Positions 1 through 13,322 of a stretch of DNA of 13,391 nucleotides are shown here, one piece after another. The stretch covers positions 1-13,391 of the forward strand of contig JBHHXN010000144.1 of assembly GCA_046757025.1 (NCBI GenBank), given 5' to 3'. Within the stretch, counting starts at the first letter, position 1. The number at the start of each line of letters is the position of its first letter. The notes beneath the pieces are model-generated. The model did not search any database and had not been told where the DNA came from. It was given only the letters and a program-made list of their open reading frames with translations. Source of the DNA: a bacterium (lineage in GTDB: Bacteria > Zhuqueibacterota > Zhuqueibacteria > Oceanimicrobiales > Oceanimicrobiaceae). The position numbers were made by a program, and so were the translations under genes.

Positions 1-182
1 AAAAAATGCGTGGAAGTAAAAAAGTGGGTGTTTTTCTTGATCGGTTTCAGCGCTTCCAGCGAGATGGATTTGTTAATGCTCTGGTCCAACCAGATTGGCT
101 GAGCCGACACGTCCAGAAAAGAAAAAAAGATACCAACGAATAGGACTACTAAATGTATGATAAAAAGTGTAGCTTTAGGCAT
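1..182 (-). CDS. Exported protein of unknown function, 5' part only (runs off the left edge); possibly an outer-membrane protein
   Basis: Not in the ORF track. The minus strand from ATG at 182 reads MPKATLFIIHLVVLFVGIFFSFLDVSAQPIWLDQSINKSISLEALKPIKKNTHFFTSTHF... with no stop before the edge. AAGGAGG lies 5 nt upstream. It has a Sec-type signal peptide (Lys, hydrophobic core, VSA|Q). The outer-membrane guess is weak inference. Confidence 0.85.
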   Translation of the reverse strand, partial: MPKATLFIIHLVVLFVGIFFSFLDVSAQPIWLDQSINKSISLEALKPIKKNTHFFTSTHF

Positions 183-606: not shown

Positions 607-1941
607 TCAGTTCTGATTCAGCAGCGGGAGAGCAGGATTCAGCGGCTCTAAGCCTCGCTCAGGATGAAATTTGAAGCGCTGATATTTCTTTTTTCGGTTT
701 CGCACCAGCAACAGCATCTCTGTGGCGGGCGCCTGCAGGTCCACCGCAATGAGCTGGCCGTCATAACTCTCCCGAATGGATTTCACGGGTGTGTGCGCCA
801 CCACATGCAGCTCACTTTTAAAATGCTTGAGCACACGACGCAAATCGTTCTGCAATGTATCGCTTTTTACATAGCCTCGGTGCCAGAAAACGCTGTTGCT
901 GCTGAAGAAGAAGGCCTGACGATTGGCGATGAGCGCCGAATCGGCCGCACTGAAGGTTAACGTGTCGTTGAATAAATATTGAAAGATATCTTCGTTTAAA
1001 TAAGAATTCAAAATATCATTAAATGAATGGACCGAAAATGCCGTGTAAACCGGCGTCACCCCGCCGTGTGCCAACAGAATTTTGTCCATTTTTAAAATTC
1101 CGGGTTTGGAAGCCAGCCATCTGCCGAGGAGTGAATGATGCACATCAAACATATTTTGATAGTGCGTGTTGTGGGTCGTGGCAATCAACTTCTCCTTGCC
1201 CGAGAGATAGCGCAGATCCCCCACGAAGGTCATGATTTCGTGGTTGCCGAGCAAAACGTGCACTTTCCCACCCGCGCGTTCGGCCTGTCTTTCTAATTTG
1301 TAAAGCAGCCAGAGCGTGCGGGTCACATCAAATCCGCGGTCGAACAGATCGCCCAGCGCCACCAGATGTTTACGATGCCCCCGCCAATTCAGCTCCGCGT
1401 CGATCAAATTCGCGACGGTCAGCAATTTCACCAGATTCTCGAAATAACCGTGAATATCGCCCAGCACATAGATGGAATCCACCTTGCTGAAAACCGCTTT
1501 TGTTCGCTTATTCTTTAAATAAATGCTGGTAACATGGCGGTCGTCAGGATTGCTTTGCCCACCATAGCGTAACACAACTGAATTGAATTTGGGCCGTTTA
1601 AAAGTGACTGCATGCGCCTGCGACAACGGCGTGGTGAAATCGTACAACTTATGACCGTCCTTTAAAACGCTTAAAAAGCCGGAGTCGGCCGGCGTGGTAA
1701 TCCAGTGTACGGTAATTTCGCCATCCATGATTTGCACCCACAGGCCGTATTCGCCGTTAAAGTTAAACCTGGAGGAGGATTTCGCCTGGTAGGAAACGCT
1801 GCGAACGGCCTTTTTGAGTGGAATGGGGGGTTCGCTGGAGAAGGTGGTTGCGGAATGACTCAACGTGCACACCAGCGCCAGACACAAAACGCCGCCGAAA
1901 CGCATCCGTTCAGGTATGCGATTCAAATTTATTGATATCAT
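607..1941 (-). CDS. Exported calcineurin-like metallophosphoesterase, PPP family, Shewanella-like phosphatase (Shelph) type; start may be Met13 at 1905
   Basis: Carries the ordered PPP motifs GDIHG, GDLFDRG, GNHE, HGG, (A)HTP, plus Shelph-like FWHRGY and IAVD. The N-terminus is signal-peptide-like (MRFGGVLCLALVCTLSHSA), and a ~100-aa beta-rich segment precedes the catalytic domain. Confidence 0.9.
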   Translation of the reverse strand: MISINLNRIPERMRFGGVLCLALVCTLSHSATTFSSEPPIPLKKAVRSVSYQAKSSSRFNFNGEYGLWVQIMDGEITVHWITTPADSGFLSVLKDGHKLYDFTTPLSQAHAVTFKRPKFNSVVLRYGGQSNPDDRHVTSIYLKNKRTKAVFSKVDSIYVLGDIHGYFENLVKLLTVANLIDAELNWRGHRKHLVALGDLFDRGFDVTRTLWLLYKLERQAERAGGKVHVLLGNHEIMTFVGDLRYLSGKEKLIATTHNTHYQNMFDVHHSLLGRWLASKPGILKMDKILLAHGGVTPVYTAFSVHSFNDILNSYLNEDIFQYLFNDTLTFSAADSALIANRQAFFFSSNSVFWHRGYVKSDTLQNDLRRVLKHFKSELHVVAHTPVKSIRESYDGQLIAVDLQAPATEMLLLVRNRKKKYQRFKFHPERGLEPLNPALPLLNQN

Positions 1942-2003
1942 CGAGAAAGTTTTCTATGAATTGTCGACAAACTTTAATCCCCTGAGTGAAAATTGCCTCT
2001 CGG

Positions 2004-2957
2004 TTAGAAGGTTTTAATTTTACCTTTGTGCACTCGTTTTAACAAATCTTGCAATCGTCTGTGCACACCTTTGATCTCAAATTCCGTCAATCCGAATTGC
2101 ACAACGTTATTAGAAATTCGAACGCCTTTTTTAGGATCGAGATTTTCAGTGTGTTGGACTTCCACCAGGTTGTCGCCTTTAAAAGTGAACTGAGCGACGA
2201 CCCCCAGGGTTTTTTGCAGGTCTTGCAGTGTGATTTTTCGAAGTTTTTCCACCGTCGCCGCGGGGAGTTTTTTTACTCGCATGTCCTGCCATTCATAACC
2301 GCGATCACTCTTGATGTTGTTGAATGCCATGCCGTTGTCAACAGCAAATACTCTCAAATTGGCGGGGTCAGTGGAGATCAAAAAATTACCCACGTTTGAG
2401 TCGCTGTGTTTGATTAAATAAGAAAGTATGTTCATATTCCCCAAATGCATAGCATAATATTCGTTGGTTTTGAATAATTTCTTGTCGTAGATATTTTTGT
2501 TGGTGACGTTTTCCAACCAGTATTGCAAAACAAATAGCACACAGGGAATTTTCTTAAAGGTCGGTTTCACATTGGGTTCGATTTCACGGTATTTCTCGAT
2601 GGAAAAAAAACGCGCAACCGTCGGAGGAACCACATAATATTCAGGCTGCAGAAACAGCTTCTGCAGCTGGTAAGCGGCTATTTCATAGCGCGGCTGATTG
2701 TTCACGGCCTGGCCTTTAGAGGGACCGCGCTTCCACTTCACGCGCATGTAAACCCCATCCTGCCACTTGATAATCATTTGTTTGGTGATATCCCCTTTAA
2801 ATCGCGAGTCTCTTTTGCGAAAAATATCAAAGGGCTCGTACTTCAAGCGCTGCTCAATATCGGCAATGGGAAATTGAATGTTGTTATCCTGCGCAATAAC
2901 CGGGGCGAAATTGCTGAGGATAAACTTGCTGATTATAAGGATAATAAACGTTCTCAT
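2004..2957 (-). CDS. Exported atypical kinase-fold protein (PI3/PI4K type II / FAM20 / HipA-like superfamily); frame is open upstream to 3134
   Basis: From Met at 2957: signal peptide MRTFIILIISKFILSNFAPVIA|QD. Then, in kinase order: RVKWK (beta3 Lys), RYEIAAYQL (alphaC Glu), VVPPTV, LQYW (hinge), SYLIKHSDSNVGNFLI (catalytic D-x4-N) and AVDNGMAF (DFG equivalent). The CDS is convincing; the kinase assignment is motif-based inference. Confidence 0.7.
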   Translation of the reverse strand: MRTFIILIISKFILSNFAPVIAQDNNIQFPIADIEQRLKYEPFDIFRKRDSRFKGDITKQMIIKWQDGVYMRVKWKRGPSKGQAVNNQPRYEIAAYQLQKLFLQPEYYVVPPTVARFFSIEKYREIEPNVKPTFKKIPCVLFVLQYWLENVTNKNIYDKKLFKTNEYYAMHLGNMNILSYLIKHSDSNVGNFLISTDPANLRVFAVDNGMAFNNIKSDRGYEWQDMRVKKLPAATVEKLRKITLQDLQKTLGVVAQFTFKGDNLVEVQHTENLDPKKGVRISNNVVQFGLTEFEIKGVHRRLQDLLKRVHKGKIKTF

Positions 2958-3294
2958 CGGACTTTTTATTTTGAAATACCGCGATTCAAAAAAAAGGTTG
3001 GAATATTGGACCATTTGACGCTTTTCCGCAGACCCAAACTGAGCGGTCGAATCATCCGAATCCATCACTTCCCGAAAAGCCTCATTTTTAAGAAATCCTC
3101 CGGTGGAAAATGGTTTACGTTCATCGCTTATCATTTCATCCCAAATCTAACCAAATTTTGCCAATTTGAAAAATGCTTCGAAAAACACACTAAACAGGCT
3201 GCCAACTTGAGCAACCCAAATCTGCTGGAAGTCGAGAAGGAAGGTATGTAAAAGAAAATTATCGAGATGTCAGCAATTTAGATTATCGCTTGAT

Positions 3295-3323
3295 AATATA
3301 ATTAACGCGACAGGACTTGTCAA
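3295..3323 (-). promoter_or_regulatory. Predicted sigma70-type promoter for the kinase-phosphatase unit
   Basis: Minus strand reads TTGACA (3323-3318), a 17-nt spacer, then TATATT (3300-3295): perfect -35, 5/6 -10 and optimal spacing, oriented toward the kinase gene. Confidence 0.7.
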
Positions 3324-3618: not shown

Positions 3619-6600
3619 CTATTTCAGAATCAGCATACGGCGAGTGGCTTGAAAGTCTTGCACTTTTATTTGATAAAGATAAATTCCAGACGGCGCCGGC
3701 AATCCGCGGGAATCACGCCCATCCCATTCAACCTCATATTGGCCCGGGACCATGGATTCATTGAGCAATTCTCGCACCAACTGTCCCAGAATATTATGAA
3801 TTCTCAATTCTACCTTTGCCTTGTTTTGCAAAACAGACGGAATCACAAATCGAATTTTGGTAGAGGGGTTGAACGGATTTGGATAATTTTGTTCAAGCGT
3901 GAAAACATCTGGCAAAGTCAATTGGGTTTGTTTATAAACAGGCAACAAAAAGCGGCTCCCGTTCATCAATCTCTCTGGCGCCAAAAAAGCGATTCCCACA
4001 ATTTTATCCTCCTTGCCCGTTAAGCGCGAAAGACTTTTACCGATTCCCGAATTAGGGTCGATTTTGATCAATTGCTTTTTCCCGGCCCCTGCAAATCCAA
4101 ACAACTTTCCATCGGGAGCAAAGGCAAGAGATTCAACGTGATCAAAGCCGATCTTGTGAGGCCGGTACGCCGATGTGTTGGTTCGACTCGAAGTATTGAT
4201 GACAACCAACCTCCCGGATTTGGTATCGACTCCATAAAGCACGGGCTTCCGATTGATTGAAAAAGCCAAACCACGAATATCTTTAAATCCCAGCCTTTTT
4301 ATTCTTTTCACCCGGCCGGAGGCGCGGTCGATCTTCACCAGTTCTTGCTCGTCATCATCAACACCATACAGTTCCCCCGTCACCGGATTCACCGCCAGAC
4401 TTTTGATGTCTTCTATTTCAATCCTTGTGAGATAGGTTGCCGTGACGCCTGTAGAAGAAGCCTTTCTAATATTCGCACTTTTTATTTTATAAATGGTGCC
4501 GTCGCTTTTGCGGGAAAGAAGGAGCACACAATTGGTTATAGGATCCCAGGTCATCGCCACGATTTTCTTTATTTTTTTCTTTTTCTTATCTTTGAAAAAA
4601 ATCGGACCAACTCGGGAGACGACAGGATTACTCGTGTGGAAGTCGATCTTTACCAGTTCGGTTTTATCTTCGGTGATGGCGTACAGAACGTTCGCTTGTG
4701 ACGATTGTTGTGGAAACCTTTTAAAGATCATGGTGTCGCTGCATGTCGAAACCGTACCCCAACTATCGGTAAATTTGGCTTCCAAATGAATCGTATTGGC
4801 GCCCATAGTCAATGGGATGATCGCCATCAGCGTATCCTTGACGGCAACGGCGCTGGTGCCATTGAATTTCCCCTGGGCTTGAATAGGCGGTACGCCGCCG
4901 CTGACTTTGAACACTCCCATGACTTTAATGCGAGCGTCCCGGATGATGGTGCCCGGTTCCGGCGGTAGAAATTCAACCTCACAAATCAGGGGCTTAGGTT
5001 TACGAAAAACGATTACCGAATCTGTGCAAACGGTCTGAGTGCCGCATTCGTCCAGAATGGAACAAGTAACGGTAAATCGGTTTTCTCCGAATTCCAAAGG
5101 CGCCAAAACCGAAAAGGCGTTTTGCGAAAGAGCCACAGATTTGCCATTTATTTGACACGAGACCGAAAAGGGCGGCTGCCCCCCTGACACTTCGATCCGT
5201 CCGCCGATGCGGATGCTTTCGTTGCTGATGGTGGTGTCGCCCTGTGGCGTTGAGATGGTCACAGCGCAAGCAAGAGGCTGAGGTCGATTTAGGATAATAG
5301 ATTGGTTAGAGGTCTTACTGACGCCGCGGGTATCCCCCACCGTGCTGTTCACGACCACTTGATTTTCTCCCGGAACGAGCGCGATGGTCGCGCTGAACAG
5401 GTTTCCCACTACTGTGGCGGGGACGCCATTCACTTCACAGGCGATAGAGTATGGTGGAATACCGCCATGGATGACAATTTCACCTGTTACGGTGCTATTT
5501 TCAGCACAGATGAGCTCGCCATTTTGAGGCGACGTTATCGTGGTTTGCATCGTCAGCTCCTCAAACGCGAAGCCTGTTAACTCGACGGTCACGATCTGCT
5601 CATCAGGGTCGTTGCTGGTTATTTCAAGCTCGGCTTTTTTAACGCCCGGTGCGTCTGGCTGGAATCGGATTTCGAAACTGGAGCTGGCGCCCGGCGGCAA
5701 AATGAACAAAGCATTCGCGGAGAGCAGCTCAAACTGGCTGGCATCGCTGCCGGACAGGTTCAAGACATTCACTTGAAGCGCTGCCACGCCGTCGTTGCTG
5801 ACCACAAAGGTTTTTGTTTCCACGCTTCCAATCAGCACCTTCCCGAAATCGTGATTTGCCGGATCCACCGTGATATCTGGTTGTAGCGGCGAAATGCCCT
5901 CTCCGGACAAGGTGACATTCAAGATGGCCTGATCGGGATCGTTGCTGAAAATCTGTAAATTGGCTTTTTTCGAACCTAAATCAGTCGGTTGAAAAATGAC
6001 GATGAGATTATGGCTTTCGCCTGGTATCAAAGTGATCATGCCGGAATTCGTTACGATTTTGAACTGATCGGAATAGGCACCAGAAAGGCTGATGGAATTC
6101 ACCGTTAAATCGGCTAAACCGCTGTTGGTAATGATAAAATTCTTGGTCGCCAGTGTACCAACCACCACAAGCCCATAATCATGACTGCTTGGACTAACCA
6201 CCATTTTGGGCTGCGGTAACGGCAGGCCCGTACCGGTCAATCCAATCTCTGCCAATGGGGTATCGGGATCGTTGCTGGCGACTTGCAAACTGGCTGTTTT
6301 TACGCCTTCCGATGCCGGCCGGAAGCGAATATCGAGCTTTTCGCTTTCCCCCGGCATCAGCGTGAACGACGTTCGACCGGACAGGAGCGCGAACTGGTCT
6401 AAATTTGCACCGGCTAAGCTCACGTTATTTACCAACAAATCGGCGCTGCCGTTGTTGGAAATGACAAACGATTTTGACGCAACGGATCCCTGCCTCACCT
6501 CGCCAAAGTCGTAATCAGCGGGCTGCACCGCGATGTTCGGCGCCGGCGCCGGCACGCCATTGCCCGTGAGCATGATACCAAACGTGGCCTGATCCGGATC

Positions 6601-7695
6601 GTTGCTGAATATCTGCAAACTAGCGGATTTATTGCCAATAGAAAGCGGCTTGAAACTGATGGTAAAACTCTGGCTGTCTCCGGATGCCAGGGTGATCAAC
6701 GTGCCAACGCTTTCAATTGTGAATTGATCTTTATCGACGCCGACAATCTTAGCGGCATTTAATACCAGGTCCGCGGTGCCATCATTGGATATGATAAATG
6801 TTTTAAAAACAATGGCGCCAACCATGACGTCGCCAAAGTCATAGGCTGCCGGCTGAACCAGGATATTGGGTTGCGGTTTTGGCTTACCGGCACCGTCCAG
6901 GTTTACATTAACCGTTGCTTGATCCGGATCGTTGCTGGTAATTTGAAGCACGGCGCTTTTTAAGCCGTCGGAGTCGGGATGGAATCGGACAGAAATATTT
7001 TGACTTTGCCCGGGAGCAAGAGTAAACGGAGATACGGTGGCTGCAAAGCCGAATTGATCGGAATCCATACCCACGATGCGGACGTCGCTCACTTGCAGAT
7101 CTGCGGTACCGCTATTTGAAATAACAAACGACTGCATGGCGCTGGAACCGACTTCCACCTCGCCAAAATCGTGCGAGATCGGCGTCACATCGATGGCTGG
7201 AACTCTGGCCGGCAGCACGGTAAAATGGCCGTTGGTTATTTCTGCCGGAGGGTCGCCCGTATTAAAAATAAATCCGATAAATTTTAAAATGGTGGAAGCA
7301 CCGGGTTGTCCGACCACATCAAAGATAATATTTATCAAGGTTCCGCTGCCGCTGAGTTCCGAATGACCGAATACCGACACGATCAGCTCCCCGTCCAACG
7401 TATTATCGACGATGGGCGGATCAAACGGTTCAGCCAGCGTGCCGGCTGTGGAGGCGCCGACGCCGCGCAAAACCGTTTTATCGAACACGATGACCATCTG
7501 GAATGACAAAACTTTGCCACCCGCAAGCTCCCCAACCGTAATGGGGACGCGGACGGTGGTGCCAGCCTCGCCCGCTGCCGAACCTGGCAGAGAGACTTTC
7601 ACTGGCGGACTGGACTGCAAAACTTGTGCAAAAGCATCACCACAAAATAAGAGTGAAACCAGGGCCAAAAAGAAGAAAATTCTGCAAGAATTCAT
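3619..7695 (-). CDS. Large secreted modular protein (~1358 aa): cohesin-like domain, 5x choice-of-anchor-D/ASH-type Ig repeats, 3 Ig-like repeats, propeller-like region, FlgD-Ig/T9SS type A C-terminal sorting domain
   Basis: Start reassigned to ATG 7695 because GGAGGTG lies 5 nt upstream and a signal peptide follows (MNSCRIFFFLALVSLLFCGDAFA|Q). Cohesin-like TVRVPITV...FQMVIVFDKTVL...SGSGTLINIIFDV. Five DFG/DYG...N-x-G...SNDPD repeats. The C-terminus LEQNYPNPFNPSTKIRF...NILGQLVREL...WDGRDSRG...SGIYLYQI...RRMLILK is the typical secretion C-terminal signature. Confidence 0.9.
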   Translation of the reverse strand: MNSCRIFFFLALVSLLFCGDAFAQVLQSSPPVKVSLPGSAAGEAGTTVRVPITVGELAGGKVLSFQMVIVFDKTVLRGVGASTAGTLAEPFDPPIVDNTLDGELIVSVFGHSELSGSGTLINIIFDVVGQPGASTILKFIGFIFNTGDPPAEITNGHFTVLPARVPAIDVTPISHDFGEVEVGSSAMQSFVISNSGTADLQVSDVRIVGMDSDQFGFAATVSPFTLAPGQSQNISVRFHPDSDGLKSAVLQITSNDPDQATVNVNLDGAGKPKPQPNILVQPAAYDFGDVMVGAIVFKTFIISNDGTADLVLNAAKIVGVDKDQFTIESVGTLITLASGDSQSFTISFKPLSIGNKSASLQIFSNDPDQATFGIMLTGNGVPAPAPNIAVQPADYDFGEVRQGSVASKSFVISNNGSADLLVNNVSLAGANLDQFALLSGRTSFTLMPGESEKLDIRFRPASEGVKTASLQVASNDPDTPLAEIGLTGTGLPLPQPKMVVSPSSHDYGLVVVGTLATKNFIITNSGLADLTVNSISLSGAYSDQFKIVTNSGMITLIPGESHNLIVIFQPTDLGSKKANLQIFSNDPDQAILNVTLSGEGISPLQPDITVDPANHDFGKVLIGSVETKTFVVSNDGVAALQVNVLNLSGSDASQFELLSANALFILPPGASSSFEIRFQPDAPGVKKAELEITSNDPDEQIVTVELTGFAFEELTMQTTITSPQNGELICAENSTVTGEIVIHGGIPPYSIACEVNGVPATVVGNLFSATIALVPGENQVVVNSTVGDTRGVSKTSNQSIILNRPQPLACAVTISTPQGDTTISNESIRIGGRIEVSGGQPPFSVSCQINGKSVALSQNAFSVLAPLEFGENRFTVTCSILDECGTQTVCTDSVIVFRKPKPLICEVEFLPPEPGTIIRDARIKVMGVFKVSGGVPPIQAQGKFNGTSAVAVKDTLMAIIPLTMGANTIHLEAKFTDSWGTVSTCSDTMIFKRFPQQSSQANVLYAITEDKTELVKIDFHTSNPVVSRVGPIFFKDKKKKKIKKIVAMTWDPITNCVLLLSRKSDGTIYKIKSANIRKASSTGVTATYLTRIEIEDIKSLAVNPVTGELYGVDDDEQELVKIDRASGRVKRIKRLGFKDIRGLAFSINRKPVLYGVDTKSGRLVVINTSSRTNTSAYRPHKIGFDHVESLAFAPDGKLFGFAGAGKKQLIKIDPNSGIGKSLSRLTGKEDKIVGIAFLAPERLMNGSRFLLPVYKQTQLTLPDVFTLEQNYPNPFNPSTKIRFVIPSVLQNKAKVELRIHNILGQLVRELLNESMVPGQYEVEWDGRDSRGLPAPSGIYLYQIKVQDFQATRRMLILK
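5551..7200 (-). repeat. Five tandem 330-nt (110-aa) intragenic Ig-domain repeats
   Basis: The SNDPD-encoding motif (g[a/g]tcgttgctg on +) recurs in 10-nt blocks starting at 5601, 5931, 6261, 6591 and 6921, an exact 330-nt period. Repeats begin PAIDV, PNILV, PNIAV, PKMVV, PDITV. Confidence 0.9.
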
Positions 7696-7700
7696 GGAAT

Positions 7701-7707
7701 CACCTCC
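7701..7707 (-). promoter_or_regulatory. Shine-Dalgarno site (GGAGGTG) for the large secreted protein
   Basis: + strand cacctcc at 7701-7707, 5 nt from the ATG at 7695. Confidence 0.85.
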
Positions 7708-7856
7708 AAAGAAACAAAAATGTTTGATATTCAAAAACGTCAACTATAAAAATACACAAACATTTTTGGATGACGGAATTTTTACGACCTTGCTGTTTTA
7801 TTTACCTTTCATAAAATATGACGTCTTTCGAATCTTAATTGGTATTTTTAGCTAAA

Positions 7857-8017
7857 TAGTGTTTGAACAGAGACTCGAGAAATGCGCGATTTAAGAGCCT
7901 CTTCGCGAAGGTGTCCCTTCGACAAAGCTCAGGACAAGCCCCCCACCGAGCCAGGCAGGAATTCACCATCGGCCAGGAGACCTTCGGGAAGATCGGACCA
8001 TTATCGTTCAGGCACTA
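7857..8017. mobile_element. ~160-bp MITE-like element with terminal inverted repeats, flanking direct repeat and internal palindromes
   Basis: tagtgtttgaac (7857-7868) / gttcaggcacta (8006-8017) is 10/12 inverted. The direct repeat ctaaatag occurs at 7852-7859 and 8015-8022. An internal inverted repeat at 7900-7916 / 7976-7992 is 15/17. It is a GC-rich patch in AT-rich intergenic DNA. Confidence 0.6.
7916..7939. repeat. REP-like extragenic repeat (CCTTCGACAAAGCTCAGGACAAGC)
   Basis: Resembles the widespread CTTCGAC(AA)GCTCAGGACAGGC / GCCTGTCCTGAGC..GTCGAAGG extragenic repeat type (recognised from memory, not searched). Confidence 0.6.
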
Positions 8018-8157
8018 AATAGCTACTATCAGTTGTCTGTTGGTCTTTGGTCTTTAGACTTCAGGTCACAGATTAGATTATCATCTCATATTATTCGATT
8101 TTTTCGTTGATACAAAGCGAATGGGCAATAAACAAAAACCCAGACGCAATTTATCTA

Positions 8158-10482
8158 TCAGCATTTATGCGAAGCATATTCCGGTATATTTTTGTCCAGC
8201 TCTTTTCGCACCGCGGCAGCCAGAGCGTTGAGTGAAATGGGTTTAGCCACAAATTCACCCGCGCCGATTCTCAAAGCGTTTTTCACTCGTTTGGATTTGG
8301 CATAACCAGACAAAACTATGGCCCTTTGCTTGGGTTGAATTTTTAAAATTCGTTTGTAGGTTTCGGCGCCGTCGATGCCATCCATGACCATATCCAGAAT
8401 TAACAGGTCCTGTGGATTCTCTTTCACAAATTCCACAGCCTGTTCACCACTTTGCACCGTGTGAATTCTGTAACCCAACCGTTTAAGTAGTTGTGTCGTG
8501 ACGCGGCGTTGAATCGGATCGTCATCCACAACCAATATCGACTCGTTTCCACCCGAGATATTTTCCACAGTTTTGGCAACATCCTCCTGAATCTCTCTCG
8601 AAACCGGGAAATAGAGACAAAAGGTTGTGCCGCTGCCCACCTCGCTTTCAACCGTGATGTAGCCTTTGTGATCTTCGATGATACCGTGCACGACACTCAG
8701 TCCCAAGCCCGAACCGCGCATACGATCCATGGTTTTGGTGGTAAAAAACGGATCGAATATTTTATCGAGCAGCTCGGGTTTGATTCCGTGCCCCGTGTCG
8801 GAAATGGCGAGCTTTACATATTCTCCGCGCTTTACGGTCTGATAGCCATGTAATGGCCAATCGAGATATTCATTGGAGGTTTGAATGGCGATGGTGCCGT
8901 GGTTGTGAATGGCTTCTATGGCGTTTATCAATAAATTGGTGATGGCTCGGGTTAACTGAGCAGCGCCGCCTTTGATGGTAAACAACTCTTTTTCCAGTGA
9001 TTTGTGTAGGGCTATTTTTTTTGACCAATCCATAGTGCAAACCACGTTTTGCACCAACTCATTCAGGTCGATGGCATCCATAGTGTAATGACCGCGACGA
9101 CCTAAGGCCAACAGTTGCTGGTTGATATCTGCGATCTTTCTAGCGGCAATTTCCATTTCATCCACCATTTCTACCACCGGATGTTCTTCAGGTAAATCCT
9201 CGCGGATTAACGTCGGATACGCAGCCAGAGGTCCCAGCAGATTGTTAAAGTCGTGGGCGATCTGGCCGGCAATGCGACCGGCGGCTTCCAATCGTTGTGC
9301 CCGCTCTAACTCTTCCTGAAGCCGCTTGCGCTCTGTAATGTCCCGGCAAATCACGCGGATAGTTTGTAACTTACCGCTTTCAGATTTTAACAGTGAAAAT
9401 TCCTTGCTCACCCATACGGTTCGACCGCTTTTGTGAATCAGGCGTGATTCAATGTTTTTAGGCGGTTGTCCGGTTGTTTGAATTTGGTAAAAATATTTTT
9501 CAGTTTGCGGTCGGTCGCGATGATACATCAATTGTTGAATGGGCTTGCCGATGACTTCTGCGGTGGTATAACCCAGCTCCTTTAAACCACGTTGATTAAA
9601 ATCGACAATCGTGCCTTCGGGATCTAAAATGATGTACATGTCAGGGGCGTTATCAAACAGGTCTCGAAACCGCTCCTCGCTATGACGCAGCGCTTTCTCC
9701 ACTTTTTTGCGCACATCCAGCTCCTGTTGCAGTTTTTCAGCCTGGCATTCCAGCTTGTGGTGAGCGAGTTGCAAAGCGGTATCTCTTTCCTGGATGTGAC
9801 TCAGCATTTCGTTAAATCGTTCAGTCAAATAGCCTAATTCGTCTTCGTTGAACTTTTTGGCGCGAATGGAGAAGTCTTTTTTCAAGGAAACTTTTTTTGC
9901 CATTTTCGCGAGATGCAAAATGGGTTCGGAAATAATTCGCTGAAGATTGGCTGCCATAATGAATGCCGTTAACGCAGAAAGACCCAGCACCAGGGCAATT
10001 ATGGCTGCGTAGCGTTTAAGCCGCATATAAAACTCTTCCAGGTCCGATTGGATGTAAAGCGTGCCGATTTGTTCTCCATCCAGGATGATTTCATGAAATA
10101 AATTTAATCGACGATTTTCAAAAAAAGAGCGCGGATTTTGTACAGGTGGCAGCGTCACTTTTTCGCCGATATCCTTTCGAGCATAAGAAGCGAAATGCAC
10201 GCCATCCCGCGAGTAAATACACGCAGTAGTGATATTCTCCTTCGCTACCAGGGCTGCCAGCATTTCAGTTGCTTCATCCGCACGGTCAAAGCTGATGGCG
10301 GCCGTACTGTTCGTTCCAATGATTTCAGCCAGAATGTGCAGGTCGTGAACCATGGCATCCTTAAAGGAAATGAGATCAAAAATTATGAATCCCAAACAGG
10401 CCAAAAACACCGCTACCCCGCTGATAAGCAGGATAATCAGCGTCAGTTTTTTCTGAATGGAAAAATCATGCATAAATCTCAT
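8158..10482 (-). CDS. Membrane hybrid sensor histidine kinase (CHASE8-HAMP-PAS-HisKA-HATPase_c-REC)
   Basis: TM1, a YfiN-like periplasmic CHASE8 motif (STAAISFDRADEATEMLAAL...ACIYSRDGVHFASY), TM2, HAMP (EPILHLAK...DELGYLTERFNEML), PAS (SEERFRDLFDNAPD...RDITERK), H-box AHDFNNLL, N/G1/F/G2 boxes (NAIEA, DTGHGI, FDPFFTTK, GSGLGL), and a REC domain (VVDDD, ILDMVM, VLSG, AKP). ATG 10482 is preferred to TTG 10488; it lies 2 nt after the upstream stop. Confidence 0.93.
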   Translation of the reverse strand: MRFMHDFSIQKKLTLIILLISGVAVFLACLGFIIFDLISFKDAMVHDLHILAEIIGTNSTAAISFDRADEATEMLAALVAKENITTACIYSRDGVHFASYARKDIGEKVTLPPVQNPRSFFENRRLNLFHEIILDGEQIGTLYIQSDLEEFYMRLKRYAAIIALVLGLSALTAFIMAANLQRIISEPILHLAKMAKKVSLKKDFSIRAKKFNEDELGYLTERFNEMLSHIQERDTALQLAHHKLECQAEKLQQELDVRKKVEKALRHSEERFRDLFDNAPDMYIILDPEGTIVDFNQRGLKELGYTTAEVIGKPIQQLMYHRDRPQTEKYFYQIQTTGQPPKNIESRLIHKSGRTVWVSKEFSLLKSESGKLQTIRVICRDITERKRLQEELERAQRLEAAGRIAGQIAHDFNNLLGPLAAYPTLIREDLPEEHPVVEMVDEMEIAARKIADINQQLLALGRRGHYTMDAIDLNELVQNVVCTMDWSKKIALHKSLEKELFTIKGGAAQLTRAITNLLINAIEAIHNHGTIAIQTSNEYLDWPLHGYQTVKRGEYVKLAISDTGHGIKPELLDKIFDPFFTTKTMDRMRGSGLGLSVVHGIIEDHKGYITVESEVGSGTTFCLYFPVSREIQEDVAKTVENISGGNESILVVDDDPIQRRVTTQLLKRLGYRIHTVQSGEQAVEFVKENPQDLLILDMVMDGIDGAETYKRILKIQPKQRAIVLSGYAKSKRVKNALRIGAGEFVAKPISLNALAAAVRKELDKNIPEYASHKC

Positions 10483-10484
10483 GG

Positions 10485-11048
10485 TCAATTTTTCCCTTTA
10501 TGGTTCGAGTTTTCTACAATTCGCGCTAAATTCAACAATCTGGAGCTAATTTTTAAATGCGATCTTTCCGCGGCCTCAATATTGATGGCAAATCGCACTT
10601 TGTTATTTTGATTGAACAAGCGAATAACGCCGCCATTAACTGCAAAGTCGGGAGTTTCCCCAACAGTGAGAACATTGAATTCGCGAAGAATGGCCAGATT
10701 TTTTTTCATCCTCCTTCTTTCAGATGAGCTAATAAAAAGAAGATGACAGAATTCCCAGTCCTCGATTTTATCAAAACGTTTGATGACGATCTTTTTTCCT
10801 TTCACGGTTTTACCGGCGATCATTTCATCCAGGTCTGACCCAAAGGGGTCTCGACCCAGAATGCCAATAATTAACGGTTGAGTGGTATCCTCAACCACCT
10901 CCTTTGGCCAGTCCACAAATTTGGCAAAATTGTACAAAAACGCGGCTTTAATTTGATATTCCGTAACTCGTGCCCTGCGCAGATTCTGAGCGTGAGTGGC
11001 CGAACTGAATACAAAAAACAACAAAATAATTCTAAATACTTTATCCAT
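10485..11048 (-). CDS. yfiR: YfiR/HmsC family (DUF4154) periplasmic regulator
   Basis: Signal peptide (...SSATHA|Q) and family signatures EYQIKAAFLYNFAKFVDWP, IGILGRDPFG, CHLLFIS, LTVGE...F...GG.I, VRFAINIEAAERSHLKISSRLLNLA. It sits directly upstream of a CHASE8-HAMP sensor. The symbol denotes family membership, not proven orthology. Confidence 0.9.
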   Translation of the reverse strand: MDKVFRIILLFFVFSSATHAQNLRRARVTEYQIKAAFLYNFAKFVDWPKEVVEDTTQPLIIGILGRDPFGSDLDEMIAGKTVKGKKIVIKRFDKIEDWEFCHLLFISSSERRRMKKNLAILREFNVLTVGETPDFAVNGGVIRLFNQNNKVRFAINIEAAERSHLKISSRLLNLARIVENSNHKGKN

Positions 11049-11138
11049 TCACATTGCCTGAAAAACGAGGCGAACTTAATTCTCTGCTCAAATCGGTGAA
11101 ATTTTCCAAATTCGCAAGTTTTCAATTATCTTTACAGT

Positions 11139-13322
11139 CTAAAACTGCCAGGTTATTTTACTAAACACACTGCGTTGGACTTCACTGGCTTCGGTCCCGC
11201 TTACTGCCACCCGATTCGCTATATTGAGAATCTGGCTGTTTTCCGCATGGTGTTTTTGCAGCAAATTTTGTCCAACAACGGAAAAGATCAAACTTTCATT
11301 TAGTTTCCAATTAAAGCTTAAATCGGCCGTTAAATAGCTGTCAACCTCCTGCATGGGAAGCTCATCCACAAAGCGCAGGATGATATCAAAATTTATTCTT
11401 CGGCCAACATCAAACATCGAACGAACAAAAAATTGATGTCGCGGGCTCTGGCCTTCCATGCTTTCTCGGAAGCTGTCTATGCTGTTGTTTGGCCGATGAA
11501 GCTGCATATTCAGGTAGGAATAAGCTGCCATGAGCCGCCAATGATCGCGAACCTGCCAATTCAGCGCCATTTCAAAACCGTTGGTTTCGCCTTTGAGGTT
11601 ATTTTTAATGATAACAGGCAGAACGCGGCCGATATGGTCCCGGAACACCACACCGGGTTCGTCCGAGCGCAAATTAAAATAGCGATTGTGAAAAGCCGTC
11701 AGATCCAGTGCGATATCGTCGCCGGGCTGCACACGATACCCCAGCTCAAATGCCAGCATGTTTTCCGATTGATAATTCCGGTTACCGATCAACTTAGTGA
11801 AAATCGTCAGGCTCTCAGGAATGGTGGCTTCCAGCAACAGCTCGACATCGTGTTCACCACGAGAAGGCGAGCGCACCGCATGCGACACCGCACCCCAGAG
11901 GGAATGGCGTTCTTCCGGCTTCCAGTGCAGGCGCAGACTGGGCTGCAGCTCAAGGCCCGTGAAAGCATTGTGCTCGATTTTGGTTCCGAGGAAAAGACGC
12001 AAACGATCTCTAACCAGCGAGATTTCATCCTGGATAAACGCGCTGTACAGATTGAATTGGCGGCTGTCTGGACGCAGGTGAAAGGTAAAGTTGGAATCAA
12101 ATTTATCGGCAATAAAACGCCAGCCGGCGCCCCAGATAATTTCCTGACGCTCACCCCAAAAAAATCGGTGCTGGAAGTCCACATCAAAAGTCTGGATGGT
12201 GCCGTTCACCACCGGCTCTCTCCGCTTCACCAGGTCGTAGTAAACTTGCAAGGCTAGCTCTGAAAAATTGCTGAAACTGCGTTTCCAGCGCCCCAGCACA
12301 TTGCCGCCGCTAATGCCCGAGTCAAAATCGAATTTATTCTGGTAGGGCGGCACATTTGAATCGACAATGTTAAATCGTTGACCGATTTTGCCAGAATAGA
12401 TATCTCCCTGAACCGTTAAATTTTCATTGTTCGCCACATCCCAATCGATCCGAAATCCACTCCGAAAAATATGCCAGTCATCCGAAGTTTTGATGCCAGC
12501 CTCATCGACTAAGCTATCTACTTTTTGGAATTTAGCATAAACGCGATAATAAGCGTTATTGCCAATTCCGGCTCCATAACGGAAATGCCCAAACCCCAGG
12601 CGTTCGGTGCCCAAGCCAAAGCTGAACAACCCACCCTGAGTATCCATACAACTCTTGGAAAGTATGTTGATGATGCCATTGACTGCATTGGCGCCCCAAA
12701 GGGTTGCGCCCGGTCCGCGGATGATTTCGATGCTATGGATATCATCCAATAATTGTTCCAGCGTTTCCCAGGAGACGCCTGAAAATAATGGGGTGTAAAC
12801 ACTCCGGCCATCCATAAGCACCAGCAGTTTATTGGCAAACTGCCCGCTAATGCCGCGTGACACACCGCTAAAACCGCGGGAGGTGATGGCCCAGCTGCCA
12901 GCATCGTGCTGAGCCACTTGCATTCCAGGCACCATTCGCAATGCTCCGGGTACGTCCAGGTTGCCGCTGCGCTTCATATCCTCGTTGGTGATGATGTATG
13001 CCGCCGCCGGTGAATCAAATAACGTTTCAGGCCTTTTAAAAAGAGACGTGAATTCGATTTCCATGAGTTGCTCAGGGGATAATTCGATCAAACTGACAAT
13101 CTTATCGTTGTCGTTATGCAGACTCCCAGTCCAACAACCGAATAACATTGTGGTAATGAGAAACAGTGCCATAAAATGCCCTGATTTTTGTAAATAAGAA
13201 ATCTTGATTTTTATTTTACAAAAAAAATTATTTACAATTAACTGGATGACTAAATCAGAAAAAGCAAGCACTACCTGAACGACTTTTTGACCCAAAGGCT
13301 CTGTCATCAAATTTCTCCACAT
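11139..13322 (-). CDS. TonB-dependent outer-membrane receptor (plug + beta-barrel); true start uncertain (13322, 13307 or 13172)
   Basis: Plug motifs AAAYIITNEDMKRSG...ALRMVPG...RGF...NKLLVLMDGRSVY...IHSIEIIRGPGATLWGANAVNGIINI. The barrel region is amphipathic beta-rich, with GQNLL near the end and a C-terminal beta-signal KITWQF. Confidence 0.93.
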   Translation of the reverse strand: MWRNLMTEPLGQKVVQVVLAFSDLVIQLIVNNFFCKIKIKISYLQKSGHFMALFLITTMLFGCWTGSLHNDNDKIVSLIELSPEQLMEIEFTSLFKRPETLFDSPAAAYIITNEDMKRSGNLDVPGALRMVPGMQVAQHDAGSWAITSRGFSGVSRGISGQFANKLLVLMDGRSVYTPLFSGVSWETLEQLLDDIHSIEIIRGPGATLWGANAVNGIINILSKSCMDTQGGLFSFGLGTERLGFGHFRYGAGIGNNAYYRVYAKFQKVDSLVDEAGIKTSDDWHIFRSGFRIDWDVANNENLTVQGDIYSGKIGQRFNIVDSNVPPYQNKFDFDSGISGGNVLGRWKRSFSNFSELALQVYYDLVKRREPVVNGTIQTFDVDFQHRFFWGERQEIIWGAGWRFIADKFDSNFTFHLRPDSRQFNLYSAFIQDEISLVRDRLRLFLGTKIEHNAFTGLELQPSLRLHWKPEERHSLWGAVSHAVRSPSRGEHDVELLLEATIPESLTIFTKLIGNRNYQSENMLAFELGYRVQPGDDIALDLTAFHNRYFNLRSDEPGVVFRDHIGRVLPVIIKNNLKGETNGFEMALNWQVRDHWRLMAAYSYLNMQLHRPNNSIDSFRESMEGQSPRHQFFVRSMFDVGRRINFDIILRFVDELPMQEVDSYLTADLSFNWKLNESLIFSVVGQNLLQKHHAENSQILNIANRVAVSGTEASEVQRSVFSKITWQF

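Follow-up and report, generated by a model that had tools for sequence, protein, structure and literature searches.

Two neighbouring genes in the 13,391-nt stretch of DNA analysed here (the window) had been proposed, from sequence, to encode a kinase and a phosphatase that write and erase a phosphoryl mark outside the cytoplasm, which raises the question of what phosphoryl donor such a kinase could use. Our analysis supports the writer/eraser reading, in which both enzymes presumably act on one shared substrate. An NTT-family carrier, which is not visible from the window alone, is a candidate answer to the donor question.

Organization and predicted export of the gene pair

The two ORFs are co-oriented neighbours separated by 62 nt, with the kinase at 2004..3134 (−) and the phosphatase at 607..1941 (−). 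Counted from its first ATG, the kinase ORF encodes 376 aa. Translation almost certainly begins with the ATG at 2957 (−), giving 317 aa, because the 30-row alignment begins there; the longer start at 3134 was ruled out, as its 59 additional residues have no counterpart in these rows. For the phosphatase, Met13 (1905) is a possible start in place of the beginning of the 444-aa ORF, as the protein representing its cluster has 432 aa. The sigma-70-type promoter-like site noted earlier, TTGACA-17-TATATT, is present at 3295..3323 (−) with 11/12 matches. This putative promoter is the best among 11 such sites in 6 kb, compared with 8.4 ± 3.2 expected from shuffling, and is located ~340 nt upstream of the kinase start. 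The leader between them contains a terminator-like hairpin of 9 pairs with a T-rich tail (3195..3218 (−)), which may be due to chance, and terminator-like sites overall are at chance level (9 vs 7.3 ± 3.4). That both genes form one transcription unit is plausible. Rfam families were matched nowhere in the window, no match to plasmid sequences was found, and the RNA search found no holder. A third gene for an exported protein, without a Pfam family, is truncated by the contig end, so that only its 5′ part is present (3..182 (−)); its homologue comes after the phosphatase in two related loci, L003 and L005 (E 5e-7).

For both proteins, Sec-dependent export into the periplasm is predicted. The signal-peptide-like N-termini described in the sequence-only reading were seen by a heuristic combining hydropathy and family alignment, and the phosphatase homologues begin alike. 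In the kinase, the predicted signal peptide comprises residues 1-22 (2892..2957 (−)), with predicted cleavage just before the conserved Q23-D24. A hydrophobic N-terminal stretch is found in 176/185 full-length kinase homologues vs 123/1005 control windows, and 26 homologues carry lipobox-like motifs.

Fold and active sites of the two enzymes

The model and the alignment predict that the gene at 2004..2957 (−) encodes an exported kinase of the FAM20/PI4K2 fold (P0001, family A). The kinase-like fold that had been anticipated is borne out by the model (pLDDT 92), for which FAM20 and PI4K2 top both fold searches. The VIA fold search gave Hydra Fam20 (5xom/5xoo; Z 16.4, rmsd 3.7, 245 aligned), PI4KIIalpha (4hnd/4pla; Z 15.8) and Fam20C (5yh0, 4kqa; Z 15.2), the last of which was matched by Foldseek at E 4e-8. 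All of the motifs named earlier were recovered, including VPPT and LQYW. Among 76 aligned rows, the predicted ATP-binding lysine K74 (2736..2738 (−)) is K in 74 and R in 2, the predicted helix-C glutamate E92 of EIAAY (2682..2684 (−)) is E in 74, the catalytic loop D186-x4-N191 (2385..2402 (−)) has D in 75 and N in 72, and the predicted metal-binding motif D207-N-G (2331..2339 (−)) has D in 75 and N in 73. The putative active site thus appears to be kept in 72-75 of 76 diverse relatives in the canonical order and spacing. The two-lobed atypical fold, with Lys, Glu, Asp/Asn and the metal Asp in order, agrees with the PI3K/PI4K2/FAM20-like superfamily. Fold and active-site motifs support the assignment of P0001 as an atypical kinase, with phosphotransfer as its predicted activity.

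Family databases gave no name to the protein. Pfam has no family for P0001; PF00454 (type II PI4-kinase) does not match it and reaches 25.4 bits (E 1.6e-5) in the best homologue against a cut-off of 27.1, and PF06702 (Fam20C) matches neither P0001 nor its homologues. The nearest Atlas cluster carrying PF06702 scores 0.93, below three unnamed clusters. In NCBIfam, the SCO1664 family TIGR03843, which shares the superfamily, was hit at E 0.0035 and 16.7 bits, far under its cut-off of 172. Searches of the PDB by sequence and by the kinase profile found nothing.

Fam20 kinases work outside the cytoplasm and need ATP carried across a membrane. P0001 resembles them in its signal peptide and atypical fold (Z 15-16 over ~250 residues), but it is 13-17% identical, carries D-x4-N where the Fam20 catalytic loop is D-R-H-H, and is a bacterial protein that comes with a phosphatase and a candidate carrier of its own. 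The type II PI4Ks, tied with Fam20 in fold similarity, share the E-x-A-A-Y, VPPT, D-x4-N and DNG-x-A-F pattern. They are cytosol-facing membrane-bound lipid kinases, whereas P0001 is predicted to be soluble after signal cleavage and its distant-clade relatives are predicted lipoproteins. CtkA, CotH, HipA and MavQ belong to the same superfamily (Z 9-12); of these, CotH works on the proteins of the spore coat, outside the cytoplasm. However, these proteins are effectors, toxins or spore enzymes that depend on host, cytoplasmic or mother-cell ATP, and none of them is known to us to combine a Sec signal with a partner phosphatase and a carrier for nucleotides.

The second gene, 607..1941 (−), encodes a PPP metallophosphoesterase with predicted export (P0002, 444 aa, or 432 aa from Met13), which matches PF00149 at E 8.5e-13. 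Its nearest solved relative is Shewanella psychrophilic phosphatase I (2z72/1v73; PMC535813), aligned over residues 154-416 with all metal ligands (E 6e-40). The PPP motifs GDIHG, GDLFDRG, GNHE, HGG and HTP (787..1461 (−)) are complete, as the sequence-only reading stated, and D162, H164, D198, D201, R202, N233, H234, H292 and H383 are invariant in 25 rows. They conform to the PPP signatures GDXHG and GDXXDRG as well as GNH(E/D) (PMC535813), and the GNHE-to-HGG insert of the Shelph/bacterial-type PPPs is present. P0002 departs from this group at two C-terminal signature positions, with A in place of G ahead of the final metal-binding His, and with V-D-L-Q for the Shelph motif (I/L/V)D(S/T)G (PMC535813), of which the Asp is kept in ≥90% of the 25 rows and S/T and G are not. 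Unlike the Shelphs, it is tied to a kinase gene and has an additional N-terminal domain (residues ~60-150; 1492..1764 (−)), located outside the Shewanella enzyme match that begins at residue 154. This accessory domain conserves G-E-Y-G-L, W80, H110 and Y126-G127 in 25 rows and marks the subfamily of phosphatases linked to the kinase.

Genomic linkage to a phosphatase and a nucleotide carrier

The linkage between the two genes that the sequence-only reading expected to recur held in the near clade but not in distant clades. A phosphatase gene lies ≤6 kb from the kinase in 42/80 related genome loci, which are kin and not independent, and in 34/80 it is directly downstream on the same strand. Six proteins are kinase-phosphatase fusions, in both domain orders; kinase fusion counts are lower bounds because the search for longer proteins missed both of the carrier-kinase fusions described below. 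The 17 strong phosphatase matches in the phylum all fall in kinase-bearing genomes (17/22), 15 of them adjacent to the kinase. In distant clades the phosphatase is absent from 80/80 loci, and therefore it is not a required part. The large ORFs upstream of the pair (3619-13322) were rejected as members of the system because, the phosphatase aside, no neighbour recurs in >3/22 phylum regions.

The most constant partner of the kinase is an NTT carrier (TLC-family, ATP/ADP-translocase-like), found in 36/80 kinase genome loci; 22/80 have neither phosphatase nor carrier. In metagenome loci of distant clades it is present in 33/80, 27 of which place it within 400 nt, and in 16/26 of the loci of ≥7 kb. 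Two carrier-kinase fusions come from different sources, with kinase parts 66% identical and a hydrophobic segment preceding the kinase domain in both. Among 167 genomes of the phylum, NTT is present in 22/22 with the kinase and the kinase in 0/112 without NTT (p 0.0014 within the family), a co-occurrence to be read with the caveats that genes of any kind may be more numerous in larger genomes and that most of the carriers used to build the carrier profile were themselves kinase-linked. In a sample of Gemmatimonadota, the 6/151 genomes with the kinase are the six with the top-scoring NTT-HEAT, and in each the two lie within ~5 kb. A further family of exported kinases, described below, goes with the same carriers. 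Carriers do occur alone: 33/55 NTT-bearing phylum genomes lack this kinase, and 11 have neither of the two families. We tested and rejected the view that an exported kinase accompanies each free-living NTT, as among 20 other Gemmatimonadota NTT regions this kinase is in none and a second family in 2.

No carrier adjoins the kinase in the source genome or in most of its phylum. The source genome encodes a single-domain NTT on contig C137, and contig C81 carries NTT-HEAT, cNMP, regulator and histidine kinase genes, the regulator being the best match of the operon regulators. The linked carriers show PF03219 (C137, 68.7 bits; C81, 52.8 bits; cut-off 21) and homology to AtNTT1 (9j3j); against the PDB, their profile matches only plant NTT1 and a second NTT1 structure (E 4e-18). 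They also share the architecture of the NTT-HEAT(-cNBD) fusions, which are uncharacterised (PMC5381601); the main text of that paper names no kinase neighbour.

The charged transport residues of NTTs are K155, E245, E385 and K527 (PMC4256464), and we read the corresponding positions from the alignment of the profile to the AtNTT1 structure. Operon NTT-HEAT carriers have K/R/Q, D, D and K at these positions, and C137 has K one column off, D, D and K. C81 reads L, S, D and R, and in the kinase-fused carriers E245 is replaced by G and K527 by D; C81 and the fused carriers are without two or three of the four charged residues. The same G and D occur in 15/34 distant-locus rows. Because these key residues differ, ATP specificity is not a given for the C81, fused and 15/34 distant carriers; PMC4256464 states that NTT substrate range is not readable from sequence. 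Complex prediction for the L040 carrier domain and its kinase scored 0.00, which speaks neither way.

Proposed supply of ATP to an envelope kinase

Given a kinase and a phosphatase with predicted export, and kinase relatives that mostly lie beside a membrane carrier akin to the ATP/ADP exchangers of parasites, ATP is likely shipped out of the cytoplasm for reversible envelope phosphorylation. We therefore consider it probable, by somewhat more than an even chance, that the NTT carrier exports ATP to the periplasmic kinase and that the phosphatase reverses the mark. Both enzymes, with intact active-site motifs and predicted Sec export, would act on an envelope substrate, the kinase using ATP from an inner-membrane carrier encoded elsewhere in the genome and the phosphatase taking the mark off. 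Characterised NTT/TLC carriers import nucleotides into parasites or plastids; here the carrier would run in the opposite direction, releasing ATP in return for ADP. The high ATP/ADP ratio of the cytoplasm would power this exchange, together with the kinase's conversion of ATP to ADP outside. In the NTT-HEAT-cNMP form, export would be gated by the cyclic-nucleotide domain and by a receiver-only regulator acting with a histidine kinase, so that ATP would not be wasted to periplasmic nucleotidases. The weakest step is the identity of the substrate: our expectation is balanced for a periplasmic or surface protein, lower for an envelope glycan and lowest for a lipid or small molecule.

All parts come from known superfamilies, and the novelty lies in their combination, resting on gene context; in the literature within reach, which took in few subscription journals, we found no paper on an NTT-linked exported kinase. 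A 2020 review calls the passage of ATP across the bacterial inner membrane into the periplasm unknown (PMC7432876), and no function has been assigned to the NTT-HEAT(-cNBD) proteins that free-living bacteria encode (PMC5381601). The system offers candidates for the carrier and for the consumer of periplasmic ATP, and an eraser of the mark. It would be the bacterial counterpart of the Fam20-type phosphorylation that takes place in the secretory pathway, and it cautions against taking an NTT gene in a metagenome-assembled genome, by itself, as a sign of energy parasitism.

The pair could be a periplasmic writer/eraser whose carrier is not the ATP supplier, moving another nucleotide (ADP, AMP, NAD or a signal) or recovering a spent one, with environmental or leaked ATP or another compound as the donor. 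Many linked carriers are without K155, E245 and K527, the last of which is tied to triphosphate, not diphosphate, transport (PMC4256464). Those characterised relatives of NTTs that fall outside the main clade transport NAD or purine nucleotides (PMC5381601), and the periplasm of E. coli is reported to contain ~24 uM ATP without a translocase (PMC7432876). On the other hand, near-clade operon carriers keep D, D and K at E245, E385 and K527 in 31/32 rows, 10/34 distant rows share the C137 residue type, and the kinase is never found without NTT in the 167 + 151 genomes. We regard this alternative as unlikely, although it is the strongest of those considered.

Somewhat less probable is scavenging, in which the kinase would run in reverse or remodel outside nucleotides, the carrier would import ATP or other nucleotides as it does in parasites, and the phosphatase would be a nucleotidase or phosphate scavenger. 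Uptake is the role of every characterised NTT (PMC5381601), PPPs of the bacterial type are broad in specificity (PMC535813), and PhoU and Na/Pi cotransporter genes occur in 2/22 NTT regions. However, a nucleotidase beside an importer of ATP would break down the very cargo of that importer, the nearest folds act on proteins, glycans or lipids, and no conserved binding-protein, porin or salvage gene recurs across the 80 loci. Nor is a high-energy donor known in the periplasm.

At a similarly low level we place the possibility that the kinase fold serves another chemistry (nucleotidyl transfer, ligation or ATP hydrolysis) or is an ATP sensor reporting to the two-component pair. The catalytic loop has D-S/G/A-N/R in place of the usual D-R-H in the 76-row alignment, kinase folds with different chemistry exist (PMC7948968), and a regulator and histidine kinase are found in 33-34/80 kinase loci. 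Against this possibility stand the canonical order and spacing of Lys, Glu, D-x4-N and DNG and the phosphatase partner, which implies a phosphoester product; several operon histidine kinases are without a periplasmic sensor, and the regulator comes after NTT-HEAT even where this kinase is missing. Finally, co-inheritance by descent without a common substrate would fit a phosphatase confined to the near clade and loci that are largely kin, but is very improbable given fusions in both orders, same-strand, convergent and carrier-between layouts, and the same 8/20 genomes of the source family holding both genes.

Extending the ATP-export reading, free-living diderms of several phyla might possess a Golgi-like phosphorylation compartment with deliberate, regulated NTT export of ATP to the periplasm, at least two FAM20/PI4K2-fold kinase families that mark envelope substrates and a dedicated phosphatase that clears the marks, a proposal to which we give equal weight for and against. 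If true, the uncharacterised NTT-HEAT-cNMP proteins would gain a function, and the rule of a periplasm devoid of usable ATP would fall. It would also point to ATP exporters as the ancestors of the carriers with which parasites and plastids steal energy. The second exported kinase family is distinct in sequence. In fold it is related to CtkA (Z 13.3), with a lower-confidence model of pLDDT 68 and a Foldseek match to CtkA at only E 3e-3; in the first sequence the catalytic loop is degenerate. When the profiles of both families were compared, the catalytic loop and the DNG/DFG motifs lined up without significance (probability 0.2); their kinship rests on the fold search. This second family is present in 13 of 22 NTT regions that we selected in the phylum, and NTT occurs in 41 of the 43 genomes with the family.

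The kinase and phosphatase genes

The sequence-only reading had placed a kinase-phosphatase pair at 607..3134, and both ORFs were found there, on the minus strand and 62 nt apart (kinase gene 2004..2957, phosphatase gene 607..1941), in a window that is an entire contig of a 5.96 Mb, 95% complete genome. The proposed promoter-like site is present ~340 nt upstream and ranks top of 11 in 6 kb. As 29 homologues align from 2957, this position was taken as the kinase start (317 aa); the phosphatase has 444 aa, or 432 aa if it starts at Met13. The intergenic region downstream of the phosphatase (183-606) gave 143 blastn matches within the host genome and thus contains a MITE- or REP-like repeat between it and the next gene; at 233-424, a 30-nt inverted repeat with 83% complementarity surrounds a palindromic core. 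Elsewhere on the minus strand, 3619-7743 encodes a 1374-aa exported protein with a cohesin-like domain, five choice-of-anchor D repeats, a propeller-like region and a FlgD/T9SS-type C-terminal domain. The genes at 8158-13322 (-) for a TonB-dependent receptor, a YfiR-like protein and a CHASE8 hybrid histidine kinase each exceed the NCBIfam cut-off (NF053590, NF053591, NF053592) and are a known trio unrelated to the pair.

The kinase (family A) has no Pfam family and no PDB match by sequence or profile; sequence searches found 472 and 479 relatives. In a structure model built from a 30-row alignment (pLDDT 92), the kinase fold suspected for 2004-2957 was recovered: Fam20 and type II PI4-kinases topped both fold searches (Z 16.4 for Hydra Fam20, 15.8 for PI4KIIalpha and 15.2 for Fam20C; Foldseek E 4e-8), followed by CtkA (11.7), actin-fragmin kinase (11.1) and CotH (10.3). 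The motifs proposed from the sequence are retained across a diverse 76-row set, made up of the query plus 75 full-length proteins chosen to represent 150 relatives listed: K74 in 74, E92 in 74, D186 in 75, N191 in 72, D207 in 75 and N208 in 73. By fold and conserved catalytic residues, family A therefore appears to be an intact atypical kinase, with phosphotransfer predicted. Neither PF00454 nor PF06702 fits as its family. In P0030, a close homologue, Ser replaces the catalytic Asp186, and this protein is likely a pseudokinase.

Export was assessed by a heuristic (a hydrophobic stretch within residues 1-45 plus the family pattern). A completeness filter kept 185 of ~286 homologues, and such a stretch is present in 176 of the 185, compared with 123 of 1005 mature-region windows, which agrees with the signal peptide-like start noted earlier. 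A lipobox-like motif occurs in 26 of the 185, and near relatives commonly show A-x-A then Q-D at the predicted cleavage site. The host genome carries a second, 60% identical kinase copy (C202:75-1019) on a contig that begins just upstream, with a TonB-dependent receptor and a presumably DUF2914-like gene after it and no phosphatase downstream.

In the phosphatase, the PPP metal-binding motifs are complete, every metal ligand being invariant across 25 rows. PF00149 and structures of Shewanella phosphatase I, a Tyr-specific enzyme (PMC535813), match its C-terminal part. The subfamily resembles Shelph/Shewanella phosphatase I in this catalytic part but differs by a signal-like start, an added conserved domain of ~90 residues and the absence of the (I/L/V)D(S/T)G motif that bacterial-type PPPs are reported to have (PMC535813); it would work like a Shelph but is not classed as one. 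Gammaproteobacterial members (L074:6905-8878, L071, P0273) lack the N-terminal accessory domain and carry a second kinase-like domain at the C-terminus, its catalytic motifs altered; in these loci the convergent nucleotide carrier ends in a He_PIG Ig domain.

Linkage of kinase and phosphatase

A GTDB scan confirmed 135 kinase loci, and the best 80 were examined. The expected conserved pairing stood in this near clade, where a phosphatase lies within 6 kb in 42 of the 80 by profile (43 by tblastn), but not in distant clades, where none was found in the best 80 of 211 metagenome loci retrieved with a distant-clade profile, many on short contigs and 26 reaching 7 kb. In 34 of the 42 linked loci the phosphatase directly follows the kinase on the same strand; 7 loci are convergent, and in 1 a carrier lies between the two genes. 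Six proteins are kinase-phosphatase fusions, with either domain first. The 167 genomes covered in the host phylum include 22 with the kinase and 20 with phosphatase profile matches: 17 strong ones, all in kinase genomes and 15 adjoining the kinase, and 3 weak ones in genomes without it. In a Gemmatimonadota clade (L025, L030, L036, L048, L054, L064, L072, L078, L079) that keeps carrier, two-component pair and kinase, the phosphatase's downstream place is taken by a gene for a MATE exporter, frequently together with DUF6941.

Nucleotide carriers beside the kinase

Neighbor clustering of the best 80 of 135 loci brought out one other large family, whose membrane proteins combine TLC, HEAT and cNMP-binding domains. 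This ATP/ADP translocase-like (NTT) carrier occurs in 36 of the 80; carrier and phosphatase are found together in 22 loci, and both are missing from another 22. The commonest order is NTT-HEAT-cNMP, regulator, histidine kinase, kinase, with or without phosphatase, and in three loci lacking the two-component pair the carrier directly precedes the kinase. In distant clades, 33 of the best 80 of 211 loci have NTT, 27 within 400 nt. In two proteins of separate origin, an extra hydrophobic segment with a signal peptide-like end joins a single-domain NTT to the kinase, a topology that would put the kinase outside.

In the host phylum, all 22 kinase genomes have NTT and none of the 112 NTT-free genomes has the kinase (p 0.0014 family by family, uncorrected for kinship and genome size). 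In Gemmatimonadota (151 genomes), the top NTT-HEAT matches belong to the same 6 genomes that have the kinase, and each lies within ~5 kb of it; one of the 6 is the search centre, and the profile was built largely from kinase-linked carriers. NTT occurs without family A or the second kinase family described below in 11 of 55 host-phylum genomes and 18 of 20 other Gemmatimonadota regions. The kinase seems to need the carrier, but the carrier does not seem to need the kinase.

The host genome has a split layout: away from the pair, contig C81 carries NTT-HEAT, a cNMP domain, a regulator and a histidine kinase, and C137 a single-domain NTT. The C81 regulator is the best match of three operon regulators, but the C81 histidine kinase ranks only second or third for the three operon histidine kinases.

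The linked carriers are NTT homologues by profile comparison, yet not uniform. When the known positions K155, E245, E385 and K527 (PMC4256464; PMC3306366) were mapped by profile alignment, operon NTT-HEATs showed K/R/Q, D, D and K, the last three in 31 of 32 rows. C137 and 10 of 34 distant rows likewise have D, D and K at the last three; the C81 carrier has L, S, D and R. In the kinase-fused carriers, as in 15 of 34 distant rows, E245 is replaced by G and K527 by D. In L086-L095, single-domain NTT and NTT-HEAT are often in tandem with complementary losses of known charged residues, which may mean that the two form a heterodimer or divide the work. Another single-domain NTT-like subfamily (L113, L114, L118, L120-L122) has no exported kinase beside it; its neighbors are presumably aldo/keto reductase-like.

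A second exported kinase family, the proposed ATP supply and possible substrates

A lipoprotein of 520-600 aa shares a gene run with NTT in 13 of 22 host-phylum NTT regions (20 hand-picked from the matches and two of the host genome). The motifs K, E, D-x4-N and DFG appear in the family alignment, and its model matched CtkA, PI4K2, Fam20C and CotH (Z 13.3-11.7). NTT is present in 41 of 43 genomes with this family. It often adjoins an Omp85 barrel, with another metallophosphoesterase near in 4 regions; both host-genome copies (C41:5165-6892 and C62:155-1768) lie directly behind an Omp85-like gene. The barrel might be a substrate of the kinase, its partner or its route of export. As the two families barely align in profile comparison and both are tied to NTT, they point to convergence on the same carriers.

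An ATP-dependent kinase with a signal peptide needs ATP outside the cytoplasm. By the established rules of transport, an ATP-rich cytoplasm and a kinase using up ATP outside make an exchanger carry ATP outwards and ADP inwards. The NTT carrier is predicted to run in this direction, exporting ATP and taking ADP back to feed the periplasmic kinase, and the phosphatase would render the mark reversible. A cNMP domain and a receiver-only regulator follow NTT-HEAT in most host-phylum regions examined and likely gate ATP export. The kinase-phosphatase system is real and conserved, and it likely runs a cycle of phosphorylation in the periplasm for which NTT is the candidate source of ATP; the whole reading, a carrier-fed kinase whose mark the phosphatase reverses, we favour by a modest degree. 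ATP transport into the periplasm is called unknown in PMC7432876, and NTT-HEAT(-cNBD) is described as uncharacterised, with no kinase neighbor named in the main text (PMC5381601). The relevant parts of PMC7948968 contain no bacterial kinase family of such kind, and the literature searched, with subscription journals mostly uncovered, gave no description of an NTT-linked exported kinase system.

As to substrate, Fam20 and PI4K2 tie as nearest folds. In distant clades, an exported beta-lactamase-like protein is paired with the kinase in 15 of the best 80 of 211 loci, and 13 proteins (P0274-P0286) fuse the two, which hints at a substrate linked to the cell wall. PF13354 beta-lactamase-like proteins also lie beside NTT, with or without the kinase (L102:8758-13827, L115:13808-16086, L151, L154, L162), and could likewise consume, or partner with, exported nucleotide.
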